Positions 26,904-40,940 of a DNA stretch of 64,000 nucleotides are shown piece by piece (positions within the stretch are counted from its first letter, which is position 1; every line of letters starts with the position of its first letter). The DNA lies in assembly GCA_028708845.1 (NCBI GenBank), contig JAQVXZ010000007.1, forward strand, positions 20,898-84,897. The letters are read 5' to 3'. Both the position numbers and the translations under genes were made by a program. The notes beneath the pieces were generated by a model. It saw only the letters and a program-made list of their open reading frames with translations, made no database searches and had not been told where the DNA came from. Source of the stretch: Bacteroidales bacterium. GTDB taxonomy: Bacteria; Bacteroidota; Bacteroidia; Bacteroidales; P3.

Positions 26904-28166
26904 ATGTCAAAGGAAGAAACAATAGAACAGCTATTAAAAGATAATATAATCCTCTCCACAGGATGCACCGAACCAGTAGCAGTAGCACTCTGTGTAGCCA
27001 AAGCAAAAGAAGTTTTAGGACAGACACCCCAACGAATAGAACTACATATAAGCCAAAACATCATCAAGAACGCAATGGGAGTAGGCATACCAGGCACAGG
27101 AATGATAGGCTTGCCAATAGCCATAAGCCTAGGCGTAGTATGTGGAGAAAGCTCAAAAGGCTTAGATGTCCTAAACTGCAAAAAAGAATATATACCAATA
27201 GCCAAAGACTGGCTAAACAACCATAAGATAGAAATCTTTCACGCAAAAGACGTAGACAAACTCTATATCGAATGCATAGCTTATGCAGATAACCAAAGCT
27301 CGAAAGTAATAATAGCAAAGACACATCAAAACATAATACATATCCAAAAGAATGATGAGGTATTATTTAGTGTAGAAATAGAGACAGAAAAGCCAAAAGA
27401 CATAGACAACAACCTAACAATCACCCTAAAAGACGTATATGACTATGCAACCCAAACCCCAATCTCAAGACTAAGTTGGATATTAGAGACAATACCAGTA
27501 ATAGAGGCAGCATCCCTAGAAGGACTAAGAGGCGACTATGGTTTGAAAATAGGCAAAATACTAATGAGCGATGAAGAAACCTCAGTTCGTAAGCGAGTAA
27601 TAGCCAAGACCTGTGCCGCATCCGATGCAAGAATGGGCGGAGCCACAGCACCAGTCTACACCAACTCAGGCTCAGGCAACCAAGGCATAACATGCACCCT
27701 ACCAATATACGAATTTAGCAAAGAAACCTCTAAGACCGAAGAAGAACTAATCAGAGCCCTAATGCTATCCCACCTAAGCTCCACCTACGTAAAACAATAT
27801 ATTGGCAGATTATCAGCCCTTTGTGGACTAGTAAACGCATCCATAGGCGTATCAGCAGGCTTAGTACTCTTACAAGGCGGAAGCTACTCACAAGTTTGTT
27901 ATTCAATCAAAAACATGATAAACACCCTAACAGGCATGATATGTGATGGAGCCAAACCCTCATGTTCCCTCAAGATGTCAGTAGCCTTAGGCTCAGCCTT
28001 CGACTCATCCACCCTAGCCATTCGCAACATAGAAGTAGAACCAACCGATGGCATAAGCGAAAAATCAATCGAACGCTCCATCAAAAACTTAGGCAAAATA
28101 GGACGCTACGGCATGGACTCAATAGATGACTTAATCCTAGAAATCCTAACCAATAAGGAGGTCTAA
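26904..28166 (+). CDS. UPF0597 / L-cysteine desulfidase-like (serine dehydratase alpha-like) protein
   Basis: STGCTEPVAVALCVAKAKE near the N-terminus, SGSGNQG, and CDGAKPSC motifs. Confidence 0.7.
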   Translation: MSKEETIEQLLKDNIILSTGCTEPVAVALCVAKAKEVLGQTPQRIELHISQNIIKNAMGVGIPGTGMIGLPIAISLGVVCGESSKGLDVLNCKKEYIPIAKDWLNNHKIEIFHAKDVDKLYIECIAYADNQSSKVIIAKTHQNIIHIQKNDEVLFSVEIETEKPKDIDNNLTITLKDVYDYATQTPISRLSWILETIPVIEAASLEGLRGDYGLKIGKILMSDEETSVRKRVIAKTCAASDARMGGATAPVYTNSGSGNQGITCTLPIYEFSKETSKTEEELIRALMLSHLSSTYVKQYIGRLSALCGLVNASIGVSAGLVLLQGGSYSQVCYSIKNMINTLTGMICDGAKPSCSLKMSVALGSAFDSSTLAIRNIEVEPTDGISEKSIERSIKNLGKIGRYGMDSIDDLILEILTNKEV

Positions 28167-28215
28167 GGTCGAAGGTCGAAGGTCAAAGGTCGAAGGTCTA
28201 AGGTCGAAGGTCTTT
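28160..28215 (+). repeat. 8 x 7-nt tandem repeat GGTCGAA that contains the stop codon of the preceding gene
   Basis: GGTCTAA GGTCGAA GGTCGAA GGTCAAA GGTCGAA GGTCTAA GGTCGAA GGTCTTT. The first unit holds the TAA at 28164-28166. Confidence 0.9.
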
Positions 28216-28236
28216 AAGCTCCTTTTTTTTAATTGT

Positions 28237-28320
28237 TCCGCCTTTCTTTGTTTCACGCCACTAACTCTTGATTTCAGCAGATTAACTCTTGATTCTAGCA
28301 TTTTCTTTCTTCGTTTCGCT
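28237..28320 (+). repeat. 21-bp-period tandem repeat array, locus C (about 4 diverged units; TTCTTCGTTTC sense on the + strand)
   Basis: ttccgcctttctttgtttcacgcc actaactcttgatttcagcag attaactcttgattctagca ttttctttcttcgtttcgc. Confidence 0.7.
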
Positions 28321-28531
28321 AGCTTTTTGTTGCATTAATAAATCTGCAATATCTAATCCCTTTTCTCTTTGCTCTGGAGTTGCTAAGCGTTCCAAAATAT
28401 CATTAATTATCAAATTACAACCAATAGCTGCAGTATAAATCCATAGTTTTGTTTATTGGTTTGTAATTATTCATTATTCATTTATTCATACCTATATATA
28501 TAGAGTGAATAATAATATTCTATGTATATAT

Positions 28532-28551
28532 CCCCCTCGTAAGCGAGGGGG
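28532..28551. repeat. isolated GC-rich perfect hairpin CCCCCTCG-TAAG-CGAGGGGG
   Basis: Read directly. An 8-bp G/C-rich stem inside an AT-rich spacer at the left edge of the R-M island. Confidence 0.8.
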
Positions 28552-28749
28552 AATACACTATTTACAAGCTTTTAATTATTTATGTTTTTTTGAGATTACT
28601 AATAATCCTTGACACTTTTGATTGAGAAAAAACTTCATCAGGAAACTCCGTCATGGGGGATATGCTATCCCACACGTTATTACTATTAGGATTTACTAAT
28701 CCGATACTTATTCTTATGTCTTTAATGAACTTATCTTAAAATTATTTTG

Positions 28750-28757
28750 TACTTTTG
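28750..28757 (+). promoter_or_regulatory. -7 box TACTTTTG for hsdM
   Basis: 29 nt upstream of the ATG at 28787. Confidence 0.45.
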
Positions 28758-28786
28758 AGGATTGAATTAAAAAATAATATAAAGAT

Positions 28787-30289
28787 ATGGCAGAAGTGAA
28801 TAATGCGGATATAGGTTTTGAGGATAAGATATGGAAGGCGGCAGACCTTTTGAGAGGTAATATGGATGCATCGGAATATAAGTCGGTGGTATTGGGATTG
28901 ATTTTCTTAAAGTATATATCGGATAGGTTTGAGATAAGATATAAGGAACTGGTGGATGAGGGAGAAGGTTTTGAGGAGGACAGGGATGAATATACTTCGG
29001 AATCGGTCTTTTATGTGCCACAAGATTCTAGGTGGGATGTGATTGCAAAAAAGGCAAGAACTCCAGAAATTGGTATTGCTATTGATGATGCTATGAGGCA
29101 TATTGAGAAAGAGAATATTAAACTTAAAGGGATATTGCCTAAGAACTTTTCACGACCAGAGCTTGACAAAAGACGACTTGGAGATGTGGTTGACTTGTTT
29201 ACTAACTTTAAGATGCACACCAAAGACGAGTCAAAGGATGTCTTGGGCAGAGTATATGAGTATTGCCTTTCTAAGTTTGCAGAAGCAGAGGGAAAACTTG
29301 CAGGAGAGTTCTATACCCCAGCTTGCATTGTTCGTACACTTGTTGAGATATTACAACCCCTAAGTGGTAGAGTTTATGACCCTTGCTGTGGAAGTGGTGG
29401 TATGTTTGTTCAGAGTGCAAAGTTTATAGAATCCCATGCAGCAAACATAAATAATATATCGGTCTATGGTCAGGACTCCAACCCAACAACTTGGAAGATG
29501 GCGATGATGAACCTTGCAATACGTGGCATAGAGGCAGACCTTGGCAAGTTTAATGCAGATACATTCTTTAATGATTCACACCCCAACCTAAAGGCAGATT
29601 ACGTGTTAGCAAATCCACCCTTCAACCTTTCCGACTGGGGAGGCGACAAGTTATCATCAGATATACGTTGGAAATATGGCTTACCACCAAACGGAAATGC
29701 CAACTATGCTTGGATACAACATATAATTCACCACCTATCAGAAAACGGAAAAGCAGGTATAGTACTTGCCAACGGATCCCTAAGCACACAGACCTCAGGA
29801 GAAGGAGAGATAAGACGTAAGATGATAGAAGATGATATTGTGGAGGGGATAATAGCAATGCCATCCCAACTATTCTATACAACACAAATCCCTGTTTCAA
29901 TTTGGATACTTAACAAGAATAAAAAACAAAAAGGCAAAACCCTATTTGTTGATGCAAGGAATCTCGGCACAATGGTTACCCGTAAGCTACGACAACTAAC
30001 CGATGAAGACATTAACCTAATAGCCCTAACCTTCAAAGCTTTTCAAGAAGGAATACTAAATAAAGAAAAAGGTTTTAGTGCAATAGCTGATCTAGAAACC
30101 ATAGCAAAACAAGACTATATTCTAACACCAGGCAGATACGTAGGAATAGCAGACCAGGAAGAAGACTCCGAACCATTTGAAGAAAAAATGACACGCCTAA
30201 CCACCGACCTAAAAGATCTATTTAATAAATCCCACGACCTAGAACAAGAAATAAAAACCCAACTAAAAAAGATAGGGTATGAATTATAA
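28787..30289 (+). CDS. hsdM: type I restriction-modification system methyltransferase subunit M
   Basis: HsdM N-terminal domain (IWKAADLLRGNMDASEYKSVVLGLIFLKYISD), AdoMet motif DPCCGSGGMF, and catalytic NPPFN. Confidence 0.95.
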   Translation: MAEVNNADIGFEDKIWKAADLLRGNMDASEYKSVVLGLIFLKYISDRFEIRYKELVDEGEGFEEDRDEYTSESVFYVPQDSRWDVIAKKARTPEIGIAIDDAMRHIEKENIKLKGILPKNFSRPELDKRRLGDVVDLFTNFKMHTKDESKDVLGRVYEYCLSKFAEAEGKLAGEFYTPACIVRTLVEILQPLSGRVYDPCCGSGGMFVQSAKFIESHAANINNISVYGQDSNPTTWKMAMMNLAIRGIEADLGKFNADTFFNDSHPNLKADYVLANPPFNLSDWGGDKLSSDIRWKYGLPPNGNANYAWIQHIIHHLSENGKAGIVLANGSLSTQTSGEGEIRRKMIEDDIVEGIIAMPSQLFYTTQIPVSIWILNKNKKQKGKTLFVDARNLGTMVTRKLRQLTDEDINLIALTFKAFQEGILNKEKGFSAIADLETIAKQDYILTPGRYVGIADQEEDSEPFEEKMTRLTTDLKDLFNKSHDLEQEIKTQLKKIGYEL

Positions 30290-30369
30290 GAAATTAATAT
30301 CAATTTCGCGACCTAACGAAAATGATATTTTTATTGATAAAAACGATGTATATATACGATTCGACAATT

Positions 30370-30397
30370 GTAGAGACGCGATTAATCGCGTCTCTAC
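30370..30397. repeat. perfect 28-nt palindrome GTAGAGACGCGATTAATCGCGTCTCTAC (copy 1), REP-like
   Basis: Read directly. 12-bp GC-rich stem with a TTAA loop, preceded by CGACAATT. Confidence 0.9.
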
Positions 30398-30486
30398 CGA
30401 CGACAACAACACCTACAATAATTAAAATACGGGTAAAATGATATGCGACAATAATTATATTATGGGTAAAATGATATGCGACAATT

Positions 30487-30514
30487 GTAGAGACGCGATT
30501 AATCGCGTCTCTAC
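30487..30514. repeat. perfect 28-nt palindrome (copy 2), identical to copy 1
   Basis: Read directly. Also preceded by GCGACAATT. The 22-nt sequence gggtaaaatgatatgcgacaat is itself duplicated at 30431-30452 and 30464-30485. Confidence 0.9.
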
Positions 30515-30532
30515 CAAGGACAACAATAAATT

Positions 30533-31789
30533 ATGAATAATTGGGAAAAGGTAACATTAGGGGAGATAATAATATCTGCTAATACTGGATTAGATGCAAT
30601 CAAAAGAGCACCAATTGTAGATATTGATACGGGAATAAAATGTATTAGAATACAAGATATATCTCAATCTAAAAAATATGAAAATTGGGGATACACTAAT
30701 GTTGATGAAAAGAATTTTAAAAAATTCCAATTAAAACAAAATGATATAATAATTGCTAGGACAGGTGCTACTATTGGAGTAAATATTAGAATAAAAAATG
30801 ATTTAAATGCGGTCTATAATAATGGACTAATAAGAATCAGAGTAAATAATCAAATATGTAATCCTATTTATTTATATTATAATATTAGAACATCTAATTA
30901 TTATGGTTTTATTGATTCTATTTCAGGGGGCACTTCATCTCAACCAAATATGCAAATAAATGCATTACTAAGATTTGAAATTAATCTTCCACCTCTTGAT
31001 GAGCAAAAACGTATTGCTGATGTTTTGAGTGCTTTGGATGATAAGATTGAGATAAATAATAAGATTAATGAGAACCTTGAAGCACAAGCACAGGCAATAT
31101 TTAAGCAGTGGTTTGTGGATTTTGAATTTCCAGATCAAGAAGGCAAACCATATAAAACAAATGGTGGAAAATTTATTGATTCAGAATTAGGAGAAATCCC
31201 TTTAGGGTGGAAGATTGATTCTGCTGAAAATATTTTTGACATTTCTATTGGCAAAACACCTCCAAGAAAAGAACCAATTTGGTTTTCAAAAGACAAAATG
31301 GATGTTACATGGGTTTCTATTTCAGATATGGGGAGAGAGGGTGTTTATATATCTAATAGTTCAGAATACTTAACACGTGATGCAATAAAGAAATTTAATG
31401 TTGTAGTAGTCCCTGAAAATACAGTGCTACTAAGTTTTAAGCTAACAGTTGGTAGAATATCAATTACAGATGGTGAAGTAACAACAAATGAAGCAATAGC
31501 GCATTTTAAAACAAATAACAAGACATATACAAATTATATTTATCAATATCTTAAAGTTTATGATTATCAATCAATGGGTAATACTTCTTCAATTGCAAAT
31601 GCAGTTAATTCAAAGATTATTAAAGTAATGAAGATAATATTACCTTCTGATAACATACTGAAAGACTTCTATGATATTGTTAATCCAATAATGATGAGCA
31701 TAAAAAGGAATGAACAAGAAAATAAAACCCTTTCAGAGCTTAGGGATAGTTTGTTGATTAAATTAATGAGTGGGGAGGTTAGAGTATGA
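30533..31789 (+). CDS. hsdS: type I restriction-modification system specificity subunit S
   Basis: Two target-recognition domains separated by the conserved central helix LPPLDEQKRIADVLSALDDKIEINNKINENLEAQAQAIF. C-terminal conserved helix ...LSELRDSLLIKLMSGEVRV. Confidence 0.9.
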   Translation: MNNWEKVTLGEIIISANTGLDAIKRAPIVDIDTGIKCIRIQDISQSKKYENWGYTNVDEKNFKKFQLKQNDIIIARTGATIGVNIRIKNDLNAVYNNGLIRIRVNNQICNPIYLYYNIRTSNYYGFIDSISGGTSSQPNMQINALLRFEINLPPLDEQKRIADVLSALDDKIEINNKINENLEAQAQAIFKQWFVDFEFPDQEGKPYKTNGGKFIDSELGEIPLGWKIDSAENIFDISIGKTPPRKEPIWFSKDKMDVTWVSISDMGREGVYISNSSEYLTRDAIKKFNVVVVPENTVLLSFKLTVGRISITDGEVTTNEAIAHFKTNNKTYTNYIYQYLKVYDYQSMGNTSSIANAVNSKIIKVMKIILPSDNILKDFYDIVNPIMMSIKRNEQENKTLSELRDSLLIKLMSGEVRV

Positions 31790-31790
31790 A
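31759..31790 (+). repeat. direct repeat DR1a (functional hsdS 3' end)
   Basis: taaattaatgagtggggaggttagagtatgaa matches 32740-32771 at 28 of 32 positions. Confidence 0.85.
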
Positions 31791-32691
31791 ATATTATTGT
31801 AATATTAAATTAAATAATGATTATCGTTTTTCTAAAGAAATACTGAATTTTATTCTACCTTTAGAAATTAATACAATAAATGGTATAGTAAACGGTAAGT
31901 TAATTATGCCTAATAGAATTTCAAACAGAGATTTATATTTTGAAAATGATTCAATTAAGATGGATATTGTATATTTAGGTACAGAACTTGAGTCTTTTTT
32001 TTTAATTAATGCAATTTATTGCGAGTTTGAATTAGAAAAAAATGATGAATTAGATTTATACTATGGTATAAGTAATAAGTTGTATAGTTTATCAAATATC
32101 CTTAGATGCTATCCGAAAAATATATTAGATAAATGTTGTTGTTCTGATAATAAAATAAATAAAATTGATTTTAAATTATTTTCAGATGATGGAAAAGAAA
32201 TAAAAGATCAAAAGCTTTACGGGGTAGGATATAAAAACGAAAAAGATTGTATTGATATTTTTATAATACGTCGTATATTGCTTCTATTAAAATATAATGC
32301 TAAACCTAGTATTACATATCAATTATTAAATGAAGCAAAAGATATGGAAGATAATAATGATTATAGACATGCAATTATTAATTGTTGTACAATTTGCGAG
32401 ATTGTTTTTTCAAAATTACTCGTTGATAAATTGACTAAAAATGGTTCTAAGAAGAACGACATAGAGAAAATACTTAATAATATTAATGGAATTGCTGCAT
32501 TAGGAAAATTATTAAAAGAATTTGAAATAAAAACAATTAAAGCTGATTTTGGTAATTTAGCAGGATTAAGAAATAAATCAGCACATATGGGAATTTTACC
32601 AAACAGTGAAGACTGTAGTAAGTATATAAAAGTTTGTGAAGAACTTTTAAAATATCATAGAATTAAGTTTTATAAAATAGAAAAATCATAG
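31786..32691 (+). CDS. uncharacterised 301-aa protein: unknown Cys-rich N-terminal domain plus a C-terminal HEPN-like (Rx4H, DUF4145-like) domain
   Basis: Its ATG overlaps the hsdS stop (ATGA at 31786-31789). The C-terminus has YRHAIINCCTICEIVFSKLL ... LAGLRNKSAHMG (R at 32569-32571, H at 32584-32586). No Walker A motif. Confidence 0.5.
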   Translation: MKYYCNIKLNNDYRFSKEILNFILPLEINTINGIVNGKLIMPNRISNRDLYFENDSIKMDIVYLGTELESFFLINAIYCEFELEKNDELDLYYGISNKLYSLSNILRCYPKNILDKCCCSDNKINKIDFKLFSDDGKEIKDQKLYGVGYKNEKDCIDIFIIRRILLLLKYNAKPSITYQLLNEAKDMEDNNDYRHAIINCCTICEIVFSKLLVDKLTKNGSKKNDIEKILNNINGIAALGKLLKEFEIKTIKADFGNLAGLRNKSAHMGILPNSEDCSKYIKVCEELLKYHRIKFYKIEKS

Positions 32692-32739
32692 AATATGCAA
32701 GAAATACGAACTTCTCATAGATTGAAACTTATTATTGCC

Positions 32740-32771
32740 TAAATTGATGGGTGGGGAGGTTAGGGTGTGAA
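32740..32771 (+). repeat. direct repeat DR1b: relic of an hsdS 3' end (reads ...LLLPKLMGGEVRV-stop)
   Basis: taaattgatgggtggggaggttagggtgtgaa. The frame is closed 10 codons upstream, so it is a remnant and not a gene. Confidence 0.8.
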
Positions 32772-32856
32772 TTTAAAATTATAAAAATTGATGCAGATTA
32801 TACTAATGTATTATAGAAAATTAATTCCGCAATTGTACAATTAAAAATATACTATT

Positions 32857-33582
32857 ATGAATGAAGAAAAAATTGAAGAAAAAGTTGAAAAGCTTTTAAA
32901 TTGTAAAGAAACCACGAGAATATTTGGATATTCAGAGAGAGGAATATTAAATTCTTTAATGTTTGAAATTAGCAAAGATAAAAAGTTAATGATTGAGTTT
33001 TTGAAACTGCTCCCTGAAGAAATAGCGGTAAAAATCGGAACTCCAGCTTGTTTTAAAATCCTTCTTGATCATTCTTTATCTGGTTTTGGCAGTCCAGACT
33101 TGATTGTTATTGCTCATTATATTAAGCCTGAAGATAAAAAAGTAATATTTTTGGAAGCAAAGGTGCAAACTTTAGGTCATCAAAATTGGAATTTACAAGC
33201 TCTTTATGATAATTATGTTGGTGTTAGTGTAGATAATTATAAGCAACGGAAAATGGGTTCTAATCTATTTTTTCAATTAAAACTCAAAAGGTCCTTAGTT
33301 GAAAACCTAGATACAATTAGAGAAAATAACCTAATAGAAGTTGGAGTAGTAAGTAAAAAAATAGGTAATAATGCAATAGTGTTAAGGACTGTAGATATGA
33401 TTGATTATGCAGCTGAGTATTTTTATGTTGGAATTGTTCCTCACTGTAATTTTAGTCAAAGTGAGGAGGATAAAGAAAAATATAATTTTTTATTATGGAA
33501 AGATATTGAAAAATTTTGTGAGAAGAATAAATTGCAAAATGTACTGGACATGTTTGATTATAATAAAGGACAGATATATTAG
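32857..33582 (+). CDS. uncharacterised 241-aa protein with a PD-(D/E)xK nuclease-like motif set
   Basis: SERGILNSLMFE (helix Glu) ... GFGSPDLIVIAHY ... KKVIFLEAKVQT (D at about 33097, E-A-K at about 33154). The perfect palindrome AATTGTACAATT sits at 32830-32841 upstream. Confidence 0.45.
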   Translation: MNEEKIEEKVEKLLNCKETTRIFGYSERGILNSLMFEISKDKKLMIEFLKLLPEEIAVKIGTPACFKILLDHSLSGFGSPDLIVIAHYIKPEDKKVIFLEAKVQTLGHQNWNLQALYDNYVGVSVDNYKQRKMGSNLFFQLKLKRSLVENLDTIRENNLIEVGVVSKKIGNNAIVLRTVDMIDYAAEYFYVGIVPHCNFSQSEEDKEKYNFLLWKDIEKFCEKNKLQNVLDMFDYNKGQIY

Positions 33583-33606
33583 TAGCCGATAAATCCAATG
33601 CAACAT

Positions 33607-33636
33607 AACGCTATTTTGGAGATATTCAAAGATAAT
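33607..33636 (+). repeat. direct repeat DR2a: relic of an hsdR 5' end (reads MQHNAILEIFKDN...)
   Basis: aacgctattttggagatattcaaagataat matches 35486-35515 inside the hsdR start at 28 of 30 positions. Confidence 0.85.
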
Positions 33637-33716
33637 AGATGCTTAGTAGTTTAGAGAATGAGCACAATGTTAAAAAAGCTTTATTTTTAGTCGAATATTC
33701 TTTGGTTTTAGCAATC

Positions 33717-33760
33717 AGTCCTAAATATTGGCAAAACTTGGGACTTAAATAATGTTAAAT
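33717..33760 (+). promoter_or_regulatory. 44-nt repeat unit R1 upstream of abiEi (candidate operator)
   Basis: agtcctaaatattggcaaaacttgggacttaaataatgttaaat contains the inverted half-sites AGTCC...GGACT. A related copy lies at 33800-33843 and a partial one at about 33690. Confidence 0.4.
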
Positions 33761-33799
33761 TTGTGAGATTATAGTTTATTTTCGTTGTTTTCATTGGTT

Positions 33800-33843
33800 A
33801 GTCCGAAATATTGTATAAATTTGCGACTTAATAATTGTTAAAT
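33800..33843 (+). promoter_or_regulatory. 44-nt repeat unit R2 overlapping the abiEi promoter (candidate operator)
   Basis: agtccgaaatattgtataaatttgcgacttaataattgttaaat. It ends 3 nt before the abiEi ATG. Confidence 0.4.
33816..33823 (+). promoter_or_regulatory. -7 box TAAATTTG for abiEi-abiEii
   Basis: 23 nt upstream of the ATG at 33847. Confidence 0.45.
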
Positions 33844-33846
33844 ATT

Positions 33847-34458
33847 ATGAGTGTTAGTATTTTTGATACTGTAAGAAAATTAGTTTTGGAGAAAGAAATG
33901 GGAGAAATTCTATTTGTTTCTGATTTTTCTCATCTTAATGATGATGAGTCTGTAAACAAAATTCTATCAAGATTGGTTCATGAAGGGAGATTGGAAAGGA
34001 TATCGAGAGGTATATATTTAAAGGCTAAGAAGACTGATTTCGGTTCTTTAATTCCTTCTTTGGATGAAATTGCACATGCTATTGCTAAGAGGGATAAGGT
34101 TAAGATATTCCCTTCTGGCAATACTGCTCTAAATATGTTAGGCTTAAGCACTCAAGTTCCAATGGTTGCTGAATATATTACAACAGGATCTACAAGAACG
34201 GTTAAGGTTGGAAAAAGAAAAATTGTTTTCTCTAATTCTACTCCTAAAAACTTTGAATATAAAAATGAATTGATTCATCTTATTGTTGTTGCAATGAAGA
34301 AGATTGGGCAGAAAAATATAAGTGATGAGGATATTGAGGTTATTCAGAATTTACTTTCTGATAGGGATAGTATAGAGAACTGGAAAGAGGACATTCAACT
34401 TGCTCCTGTGTGGATAAGGAAGATAATAATAAACTTAATTGAAAATATTGAGCTATGA
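33847..34458 (+). CDS. abiEi: AbiEi-family type IV antitoxin / transcriptional regulator
   Basis: N-terminal winged-helix segment ...VNKILSRLVHEGRLERISRGIYLK. It overlaps the downstream AbiEii gene by 4 nt. Confidence 0.75.
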   Translation: MSVSIFDTVRKLVLEKEMGEILFVSDFSHLNDDESVNKILSRLVHEGRLERISRGIYLKAKKTDFGSLIPSLDEIAHAIAKRDKVKIFPSGNTALNMLGLSTQVPMVAEYITTGSTRTVKVGKRKIVFSNSTPKNFEYKNELIHLIVVAMKKIGQKNISDEDIEVIQNLLSDRDSIENWKEDIQLAPVWIRKIIINLIENIEL

Positions 34459-35447
34459 GTTTGTGGATTAATCTTGGATTGGATGAGAGAAAAGTACTTA
34501 TTCAACAAACAGCAGAAAAAGAAGGAATACCTGATTTGGCAGTGGAAAAAGACTGGTGGGTTACTATTGTTTTGAAAGCTTTGTTTTCTTGTTCTTGCAA
34601 TAAGCATCTATTGTTTAAAGGTGGAACTTCATTAAGTAAGGGCTGGAATATTATAGAAAGGTTTTCAGAAGATATTGATATTGCTTTGGATAGGTCGCGC
34701 TTTGCCTTAGCTTGCGATAACCGTACCCAAATAAATATTCTTAGAAAAGAGTCAAGAGTTTTTATTGAGAAAGAATTAATGCCAGAGTTAAATAAAAATC
34801 TCATAGCTTTGGTGGGAAATGAAACTTTCGAGATTGAATTTATTGAAAATATCAACTCAACAACTGATCCTACTGTGATTAATGTTGTTTATAAAAGTAT
34901 TTTAGATAATAGGGTTGAGTATATTAAGAATATAGTAAAGATTGAAATTAGTTGTTTGTCTCTTTCTGACCCTAATGAAAAGAGGGATATTTCCTCGCTT
35001 ATATATAAGTATTATCCGAATGTTGATAATGATTCTTCTTGTCAGATTAATACCGTTTTACCTCAAAGAACCTTTTTAGAAAAAATCTTTCTACTTCATG
35101 AGGAGTTTCAAAAACCAAACCCCAGAACTGAGAGAATGTCAAGGCATTTATATGATTTAGAGAAGTTGATGCAGATTAAAGAAGTGATAGTGTCCTTGAA
35201 TGATATGGTACTATACAATACTATTGTTGAACATCGAAAGAAGTTTAATAAGATAAGCAGTGTTGTTAATTCTCTTTATTCACCAGAAAAGATTAATATT
35301 ATTCCCCCTGATTTGATTTATAAGGATTGGGAAAAGGATTATTCAGATATGAAAAAATCATTTATTTATGGTGATTCTCTTAGTTTTGCAAAGCTTATTG
35401 AAAGGATAAGAGAGCTTCAAGATATAATACGTAATTTAGAAAACTAA
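34455..35447 (+). CDS. abiEii: AbiEii/AbiGii-family nucleotidyltransferase toxin
   Basis: NTase signature LLFKGGTSLSKGWNIIERFSEDIDIALD, and C-terminal RHLYDL. Confidence 0.85.
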   Translation: MSLWINLGLDERKVLIQQTAEKEGIPDLAVEKDWWVTIVLKALFSCSCNKHLLFKGGTSLSKGWNIIERFSEDIDIALDRSRFALACDNRTQINILRKESRVFIEKELMPELNKNLIALVGNETFEIEFIENINSTTDPTVINVVYKSILDNRVEYIKNIVKIEISCLSLSDPNEKRDISSLIYKYYPNVDNDSSCQINTVLPQRTFLEKIFLLHEEFQKPNPRTERMSRHLYDLEKLMQIKEVIVSLNDMVLYNTIVEHRKKFNKISSVVNSLYSPEKINIIPPDLIYKDWEKDYSDMKKSFIYGDSLSFAKLIERIRELQDIIRNLEN

Positions 35448-35458
35448 ACTAACCGCCT

Positions 35459-38400
35459 ATGACCTTTTCTGAGAACAATTTTGAGAACGCTATTTTGGAG
35501 ATATTTAAGGATAATCTTGGATATCAGTATTTCTATGGTCCTGATGTTAAGAGGGATTTCCAATCTCCATTTCATGAGGATTTGCTTGTGGGGTCTTTGT
35601 TTGAGATAAACTCTATGTTACCTAAGGAAGCCATTAATGAGGCTATTTATAAGCTGAAGAATGTGGAGACTGGCACTTTGGTGCAGAGAAATATTAGGTT
35701 TATGGATATGCTTCAGAATGGGGTGGAGGTTAATTATTATGATGGTAAGGAGCAGAGGTCATCGAGGGTGAAGCTAGTGGATTTTGAGAATGTGGATAGG
35801 AATATCTTTTCGGTAGCTAATCAATGGACTTTTGAGGAGTTTTCTCTTAAGAGGGCAGATATTATTGTTTTTGTTAATGGTCTGCCGCTTGTTGTGGTGG
35901 AACTTAAATCGCCTTCGAGACAGGAAACTGATGTTAGTGCTGCGTATAGGCAACTTAGAAATTATATGAAAGAGATTCCTTCTTTGTTTGCCTTTAATGC
36001 TTTTGTGGTTATGAGTGACCAGGCGTTTTCTAAGGCTGGGACTATTACGGCAAGTGAGGATAGGTTTATGGAGTGGAAGACTGTGGATGGTGGGTATGAG
36101 AATACTAAGCACGCTAGTTTCGATACTTTGTTTGAGGGTATGTTTGAGAAGAGGAGGTTATTGGATATTATTCAAAACTTTATTTGTTTTTCTAAGCAGG
36201 GTAAAGAGGAGGCTAAGATTTTGGCTGGTTATCATCAATATTATGCTGTTCGTAAGGCTATTAGTTCTACGGAAAAGGCTGTATTGTCTGATGGGAAGGG
36301 TGGAGTTTTTTGGCATACTCAAGGGAGTGGTAAGTCGCTGTCGATGGTCTTTTATGCTAAGCTTTTGCAGGAGAGTTTGAACTCGCCTACTATTGTGGTT
36401 ATTACGGATAGGAATGATTTGGATGATCAGCTTTTTTCTCAGTTTGCTTCTTGTCAGGATTTCCTTCGTCAAGTGCCTGTTCAAGCTCAGTCACGATCTC
36501 ATCTTACTCAGCTTTTGAATGGGAGAAAGGCTAATGGGATTTTCTTTTCCACTATGCAGAAGTTTGAGCAGGGGAGTGAACCACTTTCTGAGAGAAGGAA
36601 TATTATTGTTGTGGCTGATGAGGCTCACCGTAGCCAGTATGGTTTGGAGGAGAGGATTACTAAGGAGGGTGAGATTAAGATTGGGGCGGCTCGGATTATT
36701 CGTGATTCTCTGCCTAATGCTACATTTATTGGTTTTACCGGTACTCCTATTTCTTTAAAAGATAGGTCAACTCGTGAGGTATTTGGTGATTATATTGATG
36801 TTTATGATATGACTCAGTCGGTGGAAGATGGGGCAACTCGTCCTGTCTTTTATGAGAGTAGGGTTATTAACTTGAAGCTTAATGACGAGGTTTTAAGGCT
36901 TATTGATGATGAGTATGATAGGCTGGCAGATGAGGCTGAGGGTTATGCTATTGAGAGGAGTAAGAGGAGTTTGGGGCGTTTGGATAGCATATTAGGGAGT
37001 GATAAGACGATTGAGAGTTTGTGTGATGATATTCTTATTCATTATGAGGAGTGTCGTCAGTATGAACAGACAGGTAAGGCTATGATTGTTGCTTATTCGA
37101 GGGAGATTGCACTTAAGATTTATCATAGGTTACTTTTTTTAAGACCTTCTTGGACTGATAAGGTGGCGGTTGTGATGACTTCTTCGAATGATGACCCTGA
37201 AGAGTGGAGGGAGATTATTGGCAATAAAACGCATAAGGATGAGCTTGGAAGGAGGTTTAAGGATAATGAGGATAGCCTGAAAATTGCTATTGTTGTGGAT
37301 ATGTGGCTTACTGGTTTCGATGTTCCTTCGCTTTCTACTATGTATGTTTATAAGCCTATGAGGGGACATAATCTTATGCAGGCTATTGCTAGGGTTAATA
37401 GGGTTTATAAGGATAAGCAAGGGGGTTTGATTGTGGATTATGTTGGGATAGCTTCTGCTTTGAAACAGGCTATGAATGACTATACCAAGAGAGACCAATC
37501 GAATTTTGGAGAACAGGATATTGCTAAGACTGCTTATAGGGAGTTTAGGAATAAGTTAATGGTTTGTAGGGACCTTATGCATGGGTTTGACTTTGGAGGT
37601 TTTCTTACGGCAACAGATCTTGAGAGGGCTAAGCTTATAAGTGGTGCTGTTAACTTTCTGTCTGACAAAAGGAGAGAGGAAACAAAAAAGACATTTATTA
37701 AGGAGGCGCTACTGCTTCATAATTTCTTATCGCTTTGCAAGAGTATTGTTGAGTATGATGATAGGATTGAGGCGGCATATTTTGAGGCTGTGAGGACTTT
37801 GATAACAAGGGTTTTGTCTCCTGGAAAGATTTCTCTAAGGGAGATAAACCAAAGGGTTAATGATCTACTTTCTCAGAGCATTAAGAGTGAGGGGGTGATT
37901 AATTTATTTTCCGATTTTGAGAAAGAGTTTTCGCTTTTCGACCCTAAGTTCTTGGAGGATATTCGAAATATGAAGGAGAGGAATATTGCTATTGAGCTTT
38001 TGAAGAAGTTGATTGCTGAGCAGGTTCATGTTTATCAGAGGACTAATGTTGTTAAGAGTGAGAAGTTTTCGGATATGTTATCTAATGCTATGAGTAATTA
38101 TTTGAAAGGACTACTTACTAATGAAGAGGTTATTCAGGAACTTATTAGTATGGCTCATCAGATTATGAATGCCGATAAGGAAAATTCTGAACTAGGTTTG
38201 AGTAGTGAGGAGCAGGCTTTCTATGACGCCTTAACTAAGCCTGAAAATGTGAAAGATTTCTTTGAAAATGACCAGCTAATTGCTATCACAAAAGAGCTTA
38301 CAGAGGCTTTGCAGAAAAATAAGACAATTGATTGGCAGAAGAAAGAAACAGCAAGAGCAGGTATGAGGAGGATTATTAAGAGGCTTTTGAAGAAATACAA

Positions 38401-38476
38401 CTACCCACCAGAAAAAACCGATGATGCATTGGAAACGATTTATCGTCAGTGTGAGATGTGGGCAGATAATTTGTAA
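35459..38476 (+). CDS. hsdR: type I restriction endonuclease subunit R
   Basis: N-terminal nuclease motif ADIIVFVNGLPLVVVELKS, helicase motif I TQGSGKS, motif II VADEAHRSQ, motif VI QAIARVNR, and a C-terminal HsdR helical domain. Confidence 0.95.
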   Translation: MTFSENNFENAILEIFKDNLGYQYFYGPDVKRDFQSPFHEDLLVGSLFEINSMLPKEAINEAIYKLKNVETGTLVQRNIRFMDMLQNGVEVNYYDGKEQRSSRVKLVDFENVDRNIFSVANQWTFEEFSLKRADIIVFVNGLPLVVVELKSPSRQETDVSAAYRQLRNYMKEIPSLFAFNAFVVMSDQAFSKAGTITASEDRFMEWKTVDGGYENTKHASFDTLFEGMFEKRRLLDIIQNFICFSKQGKEEAKILAGYHQYYAVRKAISSTEKAVLSDGKGGVFWHTQGSGKSLSMVFYAKLLQESLNSPTIVVITDRNDLDDQLFSQFASCQDFLRQVPVQAQSRSHLTQLLNGRKANGIFFSTMQKFEQGSEPLSERRNIIVVADEAHRSQYGLEERITKEGEIKIGAARIIRDSLPNATFIGFTGTPISLKDRSTREVFGDYIDVYDMTQSVEDGATRPVFYESRVINLKLNDEVLRLIDDEYDRLADEAEGYAIERSKRSLGRLDSILGSDKTIESLCDDILIHYEECRQYEQTGKAMIVAYSREIALKIYHRLLFLRPSWTDKVAVVMTSSNDDPEEWREIIGNKTHKDELGRRFKDNEDSLKIAIVVDMWLTGFDVPSLSTMYVYKPMRGHNLMQAIARVNRVYKDKQGGLIVDYVGIASALKQAMNDYTKRDQSNFGEQDIAKTAYREFRNKLMVCRDLMHGFDFGGFLTATDLERAKLISGAVNFLSDKRREETKKTFIKEALLLHNFLSLCKSIVEYDDRIEAAYFEAVRTLITRVLSPGKISLREINQRVNDLLSQSIKSEGVINLFSDFEKEFSLFDPKFLEDIRNMKERNIAIELLKKLIAEQVHVYQRTNVVKSEKFSDMLSNAMSNYLKGLLTNEEVIQELISMAHQIMNADKENSELGLSSEEQAFYDALTKPENVKDFFENDQLIAITKELTEALQKNKTIDWQKKETARAGMRRIIKRLLKKYNYPPEKTDDALETIYRQCEMWADNL
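35486..35515 (+). repeat. direct repeat DR2b (functional hsdR 5' end)
   Basis: aacgctattttggagatatttaaggataat; partner of 33607-33636. Confidence 0.85.
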
Positions 38477-38550
38477 GGGGAGAATGAGGAGAAAAAAAGA
38501 CGACATCGGGTTATGGACATCGTCTAAATTGTAGTCGTTTAGTAAAGCTT

Positions 38551-38802
38551 TTAATTTACTATCAGCTTCTTAGTTTGATTCAATACTTTAACCTGATAAA
38601 TACCTTTTGCAAAGCTTGTTAAATCAATGCTCAACTGTGTTTGGTTTGGTTGTAGGTTATAGGTCTTTACTTTTCTTCCTGTGATATCATATACAAACAC
38701 GTCAGCAGATTTTGTTAGTCCTTCTACTTCTAATATTGCACTGCCTGTGGTTGGGTTAGGGTATAGCTTTGTTTGTGTTTCTGTGATAAGGATATCGTTT
38801 AG
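38551..38802 (-). repeat. near-identical 3' segment shared with the neighbouring LRR paralog (copy 1)
   Basis: About 250 nt encoding the T9SS CTD, almost base-for-base identical to 39688-39939. The LRR bodies are much more diverged. Confidence 0.85.
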
Positions 38803-39666
38803 GTCAGATTCACATGTTATATTGGTAAATTCACTCCAATAATCAGCAGCTTGATATGCAGCTATGGATGCACAAGGTACGTAAACTGGTATTGTCCTGG
38901 ATACAAGCAAAAATGAACTATCTTGAATGCTTGGAGGGATTAAGGCATTGGAGGTTATTGAGCTTAAGCCAGTACATTTATTAAAAGCCAACGTTTTAAT
39001 TGTAGTAACTGAATTAGGAACGATTAAGGATGTTAGTCCAATACATCCTTCAAAAGCTTTTTCTCCAATTGTAATAAGAGAATTAGGAAGAGTTATGGAT
39101 GTTAAACTTCGACAGTTTAAAAAAGTTTGGTATTCAATTGTTGTGAGAGAATTAGGAATATTTATTGATGTTAGTTCTATACAAAACCTAAAAGCTCCGT
39201 CTCCAATTGAAGTAACAGAATTTGGAATTGCTATGGATGATAATTCATAACAGCCTGAAAAAGCATATTTTCCAATTGAAGTAACAGAAATAGGAATGGT
39301 TATTGATGTTAAACCATGACAATCATAAAAGCCCCAAGATCCAATTGAAGTAACAGAATTAGGAATTACAACTGATCTTATGCTATCACAATTATAAAAA
39401 GCTTTCTCTCCAATTGATGTTACAGAATATGTATTTCCATTATGTTCTACTGTATTTGGAATTGTTATATCTCCAACGAGATCTAATAAGTTATAAGGAT
39501 GAGTATTTAATTGATAAGTAACCTCTACCTCATAAGGAGCAGTATCTGATGTTATTTTAAAATAGAAGGTTTGACCATTGCTTACGGCAGAAAAATCATA
39601 AGCTTGAACTTTTGCAGAAACTCCTATTAAGAGAATTGCAAAAATAATAAGTAATCTTTTTTTCAT
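38551..39666 (-). CDS. BspA-type leucine-rich-repeat surface protein with a T9SS C-terminal sorting domain
   Basis: Signal peptide MKKRLLIIFAILLIGVSAKVQA. About 8 repeats of IPNSVTSIG..AF..C..LTSI. CTD KLYPNPTTGSAILEVEG...GIYQVKVLNQTKKLIVN. Confidence 0.85.
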   Translation of the reverse strand: MKKRLLIIFAILLIGVSAKVQAYDFSAVSNGQTFYFKITSDTAPYEVEVTYQLNTHPYNLLDLVGDITIPNTVEHNGNTYSVTSIGEKAFYNCDSIRSVVIPNSVTSIGSWGFYDCHGLTSITIPISVTSIGKYAFSGCYELSSIAIPNSVTSIGDGAFRFCIELTSINIPNSLTTIEYQTFLNCRSLTSITLPNSLITIGEKAFEGCIGLTSLIVPNSVTTIKTLAFNKCTGLSSITSNALIPPSIQDSSFLLVSRTIPVYVPCASIAAYQAADYWSEFTNITCESDLNDILITETQTKLYPNPTTGSAILEVEGLTKSADVFVYDITGRKVKTYNLQPNQTQLSIDLTSFAKGIYQVKVLNQTKKLIVN

Positions 39667-39687
39667 GATGTTTTGATTTTTATGGGT

Positions 39688-39939
39688 TTAATTTATTATC
39701 AGCTTCTTTGTTTGGTTTAATACCTTTACTTGGTAAATGCCTTTTGCAAAGCTTGTTAAATCAATGCTCAAATGTGTTTGGTTTGGTTGTAGGTTATAGG
39801 TCTTTACTTTTCTTCCTGTGATATCATATACAAACACGTCAGCAGATTTTGTTAGTCCTTCTACTTCTAATATTGCACTGCCTGTTGTTGGGTTAGGGTA
39901 TAGCTTTGTTTGTGTTTCTGCACTTAGGATATCGTTTAG
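39688..39939 (-). repeat. near-identical 3' segment shared with the neighbouring LRR paralog (copy 2)
   Basis: See 38551-38802. Confidence 0.85.
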
Positions 39940-40940
39940 TCCAACAAAGCATTGGTAGTTAGTAAATGCAATCCAATTAGCAGCAGCTTGATAAGCATCT
40001 ATAGATTCACAAGGCACATAAACTGGGATTGCACTTGGTATTGAGAAAAATGAATTCCACTGAGCTGTTGGAGGTATAATAGCATTAGAGGTAATTTGGG
40101 TTAAGCCACTACAATTACCGAAAGCAGCATTTCCGATAGAAGTTACTGTGTTTGGAAGGGTGATTGAATCTAAGCTAGTACAGTCTATAAAAGTATTATC
40201 TTCAATTGTAGTAATGCTGTTTGGTAGGGTAACGGATGTTAAACTGCTACAAGCTCTAAAACATTCTAATCCTACTGAAGTAACAGCATTTGGAAATATT
40301 ACTGATGTTAAGTTAGTACAGAACTCAAAAGTTCTTTCACCTATGGTAGTAACAGAACTAGGAATTATTATTGATGTTAAACTAGAACATCTAGAAAATG
40401 TAGCTTTGCCTATGGATGTAATAGCATTAGGTAGTGTAATAGAAGTTAAATCAGAACAGCCTGAAAAAGCCCACTCATCAATTGAAGTAATAGAATTAGG
40501 TAGGGTGATGGATGTTAAGCTGGTGCAACTTGAAAAACAACTACTACCTATTGAGGTAACAGAATTAGGAATTGTTATTGATGTTAAAGCACTGCATAAT
40601 ACAAATGCTCCTTTTCCAATTGAAGTAATAGAGTTTGGAATTACAAATGAGTCAACATTACTATATCCAGAAAAAGCATTGTCTCCAATTGCAGTAACAG
40701 CATATGTGTTTGTATTGTATTCTACTGTTGCTGGAATTATCCTAGATCCTGCGGAATGTATTGGGTTGTAAGGATAGTCTACATTTTGGCTTGCAACCTC
40801 TACCGTATAAGGCGCAGTAGCGGATGTGATTTTAAAATAGAAGGTCTGACCGTCGCTCACGGCAGTGAAATCATAGTTTTGTGCATTTGCTGTAAATCCT
40901 ACCAGGATAATTGCAAGAATAATAAGTAATCTTTTTTCAT
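39688..40940 (-). pseudogene. BspA-type LRR / T9SS-CTD paralog whose start is out of frame because of a 1-nt shorter poly(A) tract (possible phase-OFF state)
   Basis: ATG at 40938-40940 followed by A6 (T6 at 40932-40937) gives MKKDYLLFLQLSW-stop. With A7, as in the paralog at 39659-39665, it would read MKKRLLIILAIILVGFTANAQNYDFTAVSDGQTFYFK in frame with the 390-aa ORF listed at 39688-40860. Confidence 0.7.

Follow-up and report, generated by a model that had tools for sequence, protein, structure and literature searches.

A Bacteroidales type I restriction-modification operon with probably separate defense cassettes, among them a predicted nuclease of an unnamed family

The hsdS-hsdR gap of a type I restriction-modification (R-M) operon from a Bacteroidales bacterium (contig JAQVXZ010000007.1), located in the 64,000-nucleotide (nt) stretch of DNA that was analyzed and is called here the window, appears to hold three unrelated and separately acquired defense cassettes, namely a 301-amino-acid (aa) gene (ORF1), a 241-aa gene (ORF2) and an AbiEi/AbiEii gene pair, each of them a self-contained second-line effector, and we put the probability of this reading at about 0.6. 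It draws on gene order, motifs, family distributions and mosaic junctions, all of which are seen directly in the loci compared. Each cassette would be co-transcribed with the R-M genes and would act by itself as a second line of defense: ORF1 as a latent HEPN RNase that carries its own sensor or regulator in a rapidly diverging N-terminal domain, ORF2 as a metal-dependent DNA endonuclease acting alone, and AbiEi/AbiEii, the third cassette, as a toxin-antitoxin pair. The nuclease activities, the defense role and the independence from R-M are what we infer.

Defense genes nested in type I R-M operons are a recognized source of new immune systems, the reason for their embedding is a standing question, and such genes have been mined systematically from type I R-M, BREX and DISARM operons, with 145 candidates in PADLOC (Payne 2024, 10.1101/2024.01.29.577857). 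For HEPN genes within R-M operons, catalogs go back to 2013 (Anantharaman 2013, PMC3710099). Both ORF1 and ORF2 add to this documented pattern of defense genes embedded in type I R-M operons. ORF1 would be one more HEPN lineage in a well-known theme, a pattern already known, and the ORF2 family, a predicted DNA-cutter, is the fresh candidate and the main product of the analysis. The features of the operon are listed below by their window positions.

28787..30289, plus strand: hsdM, type I R-M methyltransferase, 500 aa (Pfam N6_Mtase 5.9e-108, HsdM_N 2.3e-29)
30533..31789, plus strand: hsdS, specificity subunit, 418 aa (Pfam Methylase_S 3.6e-30, two stretches)
31786..32691, plus strand: ORF1, 301 aa, with a variable N-terminal domain (aa 23-165) and a predicted C-terminal HEPN domain (aa ~166-300)
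32281..32688, plus strand: predicted HEPN domain of ORF1, Rx4H motif R262-H267 at nt 32569-32586, R194 and E205 conserved too
32702..32770, plus strand: decayed 3' end of an older hsdS (...LPKLMGGEVRV*), with a stop/frameshift upstream
32771..32856, plus strand: 86-nt spacer 5' of ORF2 with a palindrome inside, delimited by alignment with loci L061, L062 and L063
32857..33582, plus strand: ORF2, 241 aa, predicted PD-(D/E)xK-type nuclease of an unnamed family (invariant motif, predicted structure)
32935-32937, 33097-33099, 33154-33156 and 33160-33162, plus strand: candidate catalytic residues E27, D81, E100 and K102 of ORF2, respectively
33835..34458, plus strand: AbiEi-type antitoxin/regulator (DUF6088), 207 aa (Pfam DUF6088 4.6e-53; PADLOC AbiEi 8.7e-64)
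34455..35447, plus strand: AbiEii nucleotidyltransferase toxin, 330 aa (Pfam AbiEii 1.5e-30; PADLOC AbiEii 1.8e-97)
35459..38476, plus strand: hsdR, restriction subunit, 1005 aa (Pfam HSDR_N 1.3e-39, SWI2_SNF2 9.7e-76, T1RH-like_C 4e-89)

By their Pfam matches hsdM, hsdS and hsdR are all present and intact, and hsdR has its own intact N-terminal nuclease domain (HSDR_N). The original prediction, made from the letters of the window, placed two ORFs between hsdS and hsdR; both of them are real, but the gap holds four genes, AbiEi and AbiEii having been missed. These two lie in tandem with a 4-nt overlap and are recognized by PADLOC as an AbiE type IV toxin-antitoxin system. The ATG of ORF1 indeed overlaps the TGA of hsdS as ATGA at 31786-31789, as first described. 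The guanine-plus-cytosine (GC) content is 22% in ORF1, 28% in ORF2 and 31% in AbiE, versus 39-40% in hsdM and hsdR.

The history of the cassettes can be read at their junctions. The hsdS 3' remnant at 32702-32770 stands directly after the ORF1 stop codon and separates ORF1 from ORF2, and part of it forms with the end of the live hsdS a 40-nt direct repeat that is 83% identical (31751-31790 versus 32732-32771). Homology to hsdS ends starts at 32702 when the window is aligned with L062 and at 32732 when it is aligned with L061, while the homology of the ORF1 unit to L002 stops at 32706 and that of the ORF2 unit to L062 begins at 32702. The same 86-nt spacer that precedes ORF2 follows an intact hsdS in L061, L062 and L063, with a mean column identity of 96% over the aligned region. 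L061, the closest operon, has the order hsdS, 86-nt spacer, ORF2 homolog and AbiE, with no ORF1, and a 2.76-kb block of the window (32732-35494, comprising the old hsdS tail, ORF2, AbiEi, AbiEii and the start of hsdR) is 95.4% identical to it, as against 84.6% for hsdM and 79% for hsdR of the same two operons. The leftover hsdS tail and the 95%-identical ORF2-AbiE block thus mark ORF1 and ORF2 as independent cassettes, and the junction, the spacer, the block identity and the GC content together imply an ancestral order hsdS-ORF2-(AbiE)-hsdR to which a segment carrying hsdS and ORF1 was added later. In L001 and L061, hsdR 5' remnants lie beside other cargo, and the whole set suggests that recombination at the conserved ends of type I genes replaces one cargo with another and leaves junction duplicates; such remnants show concretely how type I operons exchange cargo. 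The hsdS 3' or hsdR 5' remnants recorded beside cassettes are those at window 32702-32770, L001 5300-5345, L061 6787-6912 and L026 8641-8754.

Neither ORF1 nor ORF2 matches any family in Pfam, NCBIfam or PADLOC (PADLOC-DB v2.0.0; threshold E<=1) or in PHROGs, and searches of the PDB sequences with the family profiles gave no match for either. ORF2 belongs to a family of 45 homologous clusters, all unnamed and of about 225 aa, which come largely from metagenomes and metagenome-assembled genomes (MAGs), the named ones being from Bacteroidota. The nuclease triad layout that had been pointed out in it (E, PD and E-A-K) is present and its residues E27, D81, E100 and K102 are invariant in 43 homologs, giving the catalytic D...(D/E)xK motif of the superfamily, which often has an E upstream; further invariant elements are GYSERGIxNS (which contains E27), S73, G78, F98 and SNLFxQL. 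An AlphaFold2 (AF2) model of ORF2 has a predicted local distance difference test score (pLDDT) of 84.7 and a predicted template-modeling score (pTM) of 0.86, and consists of a helix at 30-38, strands at 65-70, 82-87 and 95-101, a helix at 137-149 and a strand at 187-194, which is the alpha-beta-beta-beta-alpha-beta core of PD-(D/E)xK enzymes, with D81 just before strand 82-87 and E100-x-K102 ending strand 95-101. Foldseek lists for this model are dominated by PD-(D/E)xK nucleases in both databases searched, at non-significant scores: PaqCI, NucS/EndoMS, N.BspD6I, BamHI, AddB, HinP1I, Shedu and SwaI in the PDB (best E 0.31), and UL24, 'PD-(D/E)XK nuclease' proteins and Cas4 in BFVD (best E 0.012, probability up to 0.95). 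The invariant motif, the topology of the confidently modeled core and the kind of structures retrieved agree with the fold first proposed, and ORF2 is quite probably of the PD-(D/E)xK type.

ORF2 has a predicted nuclease fold but, as judged by profile searches, lies outside every named restriction-endonuclease-fold family and every PADLOC candidate. None of 43 family members matches any Pfam family, including PDDEXK_1-4, DUF4268 and NucS_C (E<=0.1), and a relationship to the nuclease domains of HsdR was discarded since the hhalign profile comparison shows no similarity. Other PD-(D/E)xK-type genes, of the DUF4268/NucS_C and PDDEXK_4 families, occur likewise between hsdS and hsdR, even beside ORF2 homologs in L015 and L029, but have no profile relation to ORF2 (0/43 members match a Pfam nuclease family). 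The nearest BFVD predicted structures, herpesvirus UL24 and phage proteins named 'PD-(D/E)XK nuclease superfamily', resemble ORF2 at the level of the fold only (E 0.01-0.1, TM-score 0.2-0.36, identity 10-16%). When compared to the HEC/PDC candidates obtained through guilt-by-embedding (10.1101/2024.01.29.577857), ORF1 and ORF2 match none of the PADLOC-DB v2.0.0 models, and metagenome assemblies are the main source of both families.

The genomic distribution of the ORF2 family is split between two clades. Direct look-up of six homologs placed every one in a type I R-M locus, five between hsdS and hsdR and one, in L006, just after hsdR. A metagenome scan added 46 loci, the 20 closest (L015-L034) and 26 more distant ones that form a sister clade; type I genes are found in 18 of the 20 closest, including compact hsdM-hsdS-ORF2 homolog-hsdR operons, and altogether 24 of 26 near-clade loci are embedded in or abut type I R-M operons. 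In L008, L009 and L033 the genes of such an operon are separated by gaps of 4-25 nt. The sister clade has type I R-M genes in 0 of its 26 loci, and its neighbors are instead genes for BrxL-like ATPase/MIT_C, SLFN-type helicase, McrC with PDDEXK_1, HNH, PIN, HD, metallo-beta-lactamase (MBL)/RNase-J-like and RmuC proteins. The motifs of ORF2, including a C-terminal GQIY, are kept in 22 sister-clade proteins, except for a few substitutions in the most divergent members.

The host operons of ORF2 homologs carry three HsdR C-terminal types, corresponding to three type I families. Across ten operons, pairwise identities are correlated between HsdM and HsdR (rho 0.95) and far less between ORF2 and HsdM (rho 0.24) or ORF2 and HsdR (rho 0.31); between L006 and L009, for instance, ORF2 is 62% identical whereas HsdM is 26% and HsdR 25% identical. 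ORF2 has not evolved in step with HsdM or HsdR. The autonomous look of ORF2 follows from this lack of tracking, from the three HsdR C-terminal types of its hosts and from the motif-keeping sister clade off R-M.

The cargo of other ORF2-bearing operons is diverse (DUF4268/NucS_C, DUF3800, ABC ATPases, radical SAM, PDDEXK_4, KAP NTPase, Abi_2 and GIY-YIG). A 171-aa gene, x171 (L003 9463-9975, with homologs in L016, L017, L018, L022, L025 and L031), adjoins ORF2 homologs in 7 loci, and some members of the family may have it as a partner; the window lacks it, it matches nothing in Pfam or PHROGs, and it was rejected as an equivalent of ORF1 or of its HEPN domain (hhalign probability 0.4%, no Pfam match). 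In the sister clade, a metallo-beta-lactamase/RMMBL (RNase-J-like) gene stands directly 3' of the ORF2-like gene in L040, L050, L053 and L056, and the two may make up a two-gene system of this non-R-M clade.

In the case of ORF1, a word-seeded search of 5.8e9 proteins returned three clusters only: two homologs of 48-50% identity and the ORF1 protein itself, which comes from a Bacteroidales MAG and is annotated by NCBI as 'HEPN domain-containing protein'. Identity among the three is very uneven along the protein, being 26-47% over residues 23-165, 73% over residues 166-301 and 83-87% over residues 195-270. An exhaustive HMMER search reached 115 relatives, mostly of about 310 aa and aligned end to end, and among 62 of them E205 and R262 never vary, R194, N263 and H267 reach 98% conservation and G269 reaches 90%, so that the Rx4-6H motif that characterizes the HEPN superfamily is present as R262-N-K-S-A-H267. 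Relatives of ORF1 match HEPN_RiboL-PSP (best 2.4e-6), DUF4145, HEPN, Csm6 HEPN, HEPN_MAE_28990 and Ymh in Pfam, mostly below gathering scores, and one further family, DUF7014, of uncertain affinity. AF2 predicts only helices for residues 152-290, at a low confidence (pLDDT 56 overall and 62-74 in that region). By transitive homology and the conserved motif, the C-terminal domain of ORF1 is very probably a HEPN domain, of a lineage outside every named profile. The HEPN-like character of the C-terminus, as first proposed, holds up; as to the DUF4145-type HEPN modules to which it was likened, relatives give a weak DUF4145 match, and ORF1 itself does not score as a member.

The N-terminal domain of ORF1, of about 165 aa, has a conserved P42 and W/G64-65 and no named counterpart, and the low-confidence AF2 model predicts a mixed beta/alpha structure for it. 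Not even the two closest homologs preserve the 'Cys-rich' stretch DKCCCSDNK that was singled out in the original prediction. Pfam and PADLOC give no P-loop or ABC match. An HsdS-like target-recognition domain was considered for this region and rejected (hhalign probability 0.2%), and Foldseek matches of ORF1 to PII and Cas6 ferredoxin-like structures were discarded because the model is too poor (pLDDT 56).

Some known systems resemble ORF1 in part. PrrC of the EcoprrI locus is likewise encoded by a HEPN-type nuclease gene between hsdS and hsdR and is the model of an R-M-guarded backup effector (PMC3710099), but PrrC and RloC carry an N-terminal ABC-ATPase regulatory domain that ORF1 is without (no Pfam or PADLOC match), and for this lack of an ATPase domain ORF1 is not a member of the PrrC/RloC group. 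The R-M complex also keeps PrrC inactive by binding it physically, and full-length relatives of ORF1 occur outside R-M loci. The HEPN families described in 2013 (DUF4145, Abi2/AbiD, ApeA, Ymh and EC042_2821, among others) similarly combine an Rx4-6H motif with a family-specific N-terminal domain inside R-M operons (PMC3710099); of their kind, DUF4145, HEPN, Ymh and HEPN_RiboL-PSP are matched by ORF1 relatives below gathering scores and none is matched by ORF1.

The narrow clade of ORF1 is tied to hsdS, as all five of its distinct loci keep an hsdS 3' tail directly upstream with the ATGA overlap. The ORF1-like gene is intact in both loci that have an intact R-M operon, the window and L001, the latter with the order hsdM-DUF3800-148aa-hsdS-ORF1 homolog-DarT-DarG-hsdR. 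It is also intact in L002 (protein P0002), where the upstream region holds only a promoter-like stretch resembling that upstream of hsdM and a 12-codon hsdS tail. In L066-L068 the same hsdS tail precedes an ORF1-like gene that is frameshifted into 72 + 223 aa, identically in three independent assemblies, and in L069 the gene is split by the insertion of a Y1 (IS200/IS605-type) transposase; in all these loci hsdM and hsdS are gone, only the last ~100 codons of hsdR remain and insertion sequence (IS) elements are present. Counted by lineage, the ORF1-like genes are broken in 2 of 3 after hsdM and hsdS loss. A locus search with a narrower ORF1 alignment gave four genomic loci (L011-L014), in which full-length relatives are solitary amid housekeeping genes with no R-M nearby, and two more relatives, P0050 and P0051, adjoin a serine recombinase and a tyrosine integrase as mobile-element cargo.

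The motif TTTGTACTTTTGAGGATT is found 5' of hsdM at window 28748-28765 and recurs in L002 at 1-20 and 222-240, both copies being upstream of the hsdS tail and ORF1 homolog. It holds TAnnTTTG, which we take to be a Bacteroidota-type promoter element. This suggests that in L002 the HEPN gene is the only one left under the control of the R-M promoter.

Several of these findings weigh against three self-contained cassettes. On the side of the predicted activities, structure and profile searches with ORF2 give nothing significant (best Foldseek E 0.012), the model of ORF1 is of low quality (pLDDT 56) and its own sequence is recognized by none of the HEPN profiles. On the side of autonomy, the near-clade embedding of ORF2 (24/26) is about as exclusive as that of PrrC, which depends on its R-M partner; the hsdS tail and ATGA overlap are kept in all five distinct ORF1-clade loci; and where hsdM and hsdS are lost, two independent kinds of damage have disrupted the ORF1-like gene (a frameshift in L066-L068, an IS in L069), as one would equally predict for an RNase that does harm or has no use in the absence of HsdMS. 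Dependence on R-M is, for each gene, nonetheless unlikely, and the arguments differ between the two.

For ORF2, dependence could take the form of a PrrC-like latent DNase that anti-restriction proteins hitting HsdMS(R) would set free, or of a fourth subunit of Bacteroidota type I enzymes. Such a role would fit the 24 of 26 near-clade loci of type I, mostly in the hsdS-hsdR gap, the tight gaps of 4-25 nt (L008, L009 and L033) and the constant placement on the same strand, and it has precedents: PrrC has been singled out for its exclusive R-M embedding and depends on its R-M partner (Payne 2024, 10.1101/2024.01.29.577857), and Ronin (RonA with an HsdMS decoy) is the other. Ronin and TgvAB are both tested cases in which extra genes linked to type I R-M add a second defense layer. 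Neither of these two is homologous to ORF1 or ORF2, RonA being a 61-aa membrane protein of a system usually without hsdR and TgvAB a GmrSD-like type IV enzyme. Dependence is made doubtful, however, by the lack of co-evolution with HsdM and HsdR (L006 versus L009), by hosts from three type I subfamilies with a position downstream of hsdR in L006, by the same-motif sister clade that is never near type I R-M genes, and by a presence that varies among close operons (found in the window and L061, missing from L001). We hold it improbable that the ORF2 family is a true functional partner of Bacteroidota type I R-M, whether as latent DNase or fourth subunit, with a sister clade freed from dependence; if it were, ORF2 would be the first DNase-type R-M-guarded effector, and its embedded and free clades would form a natural pair in which to ask why defense genes embed.

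For ORF1, the corresponding alternative is a clade restrained by HsdS/HsdM, or useful only with them, in which the coupling would set the dose relative to HsdS and the loss of R-M would unleash the HEPN RNase. The conserved hsdS tail and overlap in the five loci would fit this, as would a gene that is intact in the window and L001 and disrupted in L066-L068 and L069, where hsdM and hsdS are missing. However, P0002 of L002 is intact despite the same upstream layout lacking hsdM and hsdS, the distant full-length relatives are solitary or mobile-element cargo, ORF1 lacks the kind of regulatory NTPase domain that PrrC and RloC carry, and the decay in L066-L069 may be that of a dying locus, given the ~100 codons of hsdR and the IS elements. 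Restraint of ORF1 by the R-M enzyme is hence considered unlikely as well, and the reading of self-contained effectors is preferred for both genes.

Another way to account for the position of ORF2 would be a selfish homing-type nuclease that cuts hsdS-3'/hsdR-5' junctions and spreads by repair-mediated copying. Its stereotyped insertion position across unrelated type I families without co-evolution, the sharp junctions with duplicated hsdS/hsdR ends (window 32702-32770, L026 8641-8754, L061 6787-6912) and the high-identity block between more divergent core genes are what such an element would leave; but the hsdS tails and hsdR starts of one type I family are unlike those of another, the same remnants accompany non-nuclease cargo (DarTG in L001) and the sister clade lives in varied, non-stereotyped neighborhoods, all of which makes homing very unlikely. 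The original prediction had united an RNase-like ORF1 and a DNase-like ORF2 into a single backup effector module of two genes that the R-M complex would keep latent, an idea in keeping with their common strand between hsdS and hsdR, the start/stop coupling of ORF1 to hsdS and the nuclease-type motifs of both, but one that is hardly tenable, because among the loci compared the two occur together only in the window (the ORF1 homolog of L001 precedes DarT/DarG with no ORF2 homolog, and no ORF1 homolog exists in any of ~30 ORF2-bearing loci, including L003, L006, L008, L009 and L061-L063), an hsdS remnant stands between them, and the ORF2-AbiE block is shared with L061, which has no ORF1. A homolog survey had been proposed to see whether either gene accompanies hsdS/hsdR and the other gene; each family is separately linked to type I R-M operons, but in the loci compared the two do not co-occur outside the window.

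In the preferred reading of separate cassettes, ORF2 represents a predicted nuclease family without a name in Pfam, NCBIfam, PADLOC or PHROGs. One of its clades is ~90% embedded and a same-motif sister clade never is, and the family is thus a test case for functional dependence versus co-regulation or co-transfer as the reason for embedding.

With regard to small elements, the perfect palindrome AATTGTACAATT reported upstream of ORF2 is present, but at 32831-32842 and not at 32830-32841. The window contains 20 perfect 12-nt palindromes including this one, which is not rarer than chance (0.81 matches with <=1 mismatch expected) and whose counterpart in the three closest loci is imperfect (AATCGTACAATT). 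Being common and not conserved, it gives no evidence of a regulatory site, and its role as an operator was discarded. An Rfam scan of 28000-39000 gave zero matches, and in a scan for sigma-70-type promoters and terminators, which is unsuited to Bacteroidota promoters, shuffled sequence gave counts at least as high.

A 7-nt tandem repeat (AGGTCGA, 7.7 copies) lies at window 28159-28212, just after the upstream housekeeping gene, and a 33-nt tandem repeat (2.2 copies) at window 30415-30485, in the 243-nt gap between hsdM and hsdS. The same gap holds DUF3800 and a 148-aa gene in L001 and L061. Directly 3' of hsdR, on the minus strand at window 38551-40860, are two paralogous genes for putative leucine-rich-repeat (BspA-like) proteins, labeled by reading of their sequences, whose C-terminal ~85 aa are near-identical.

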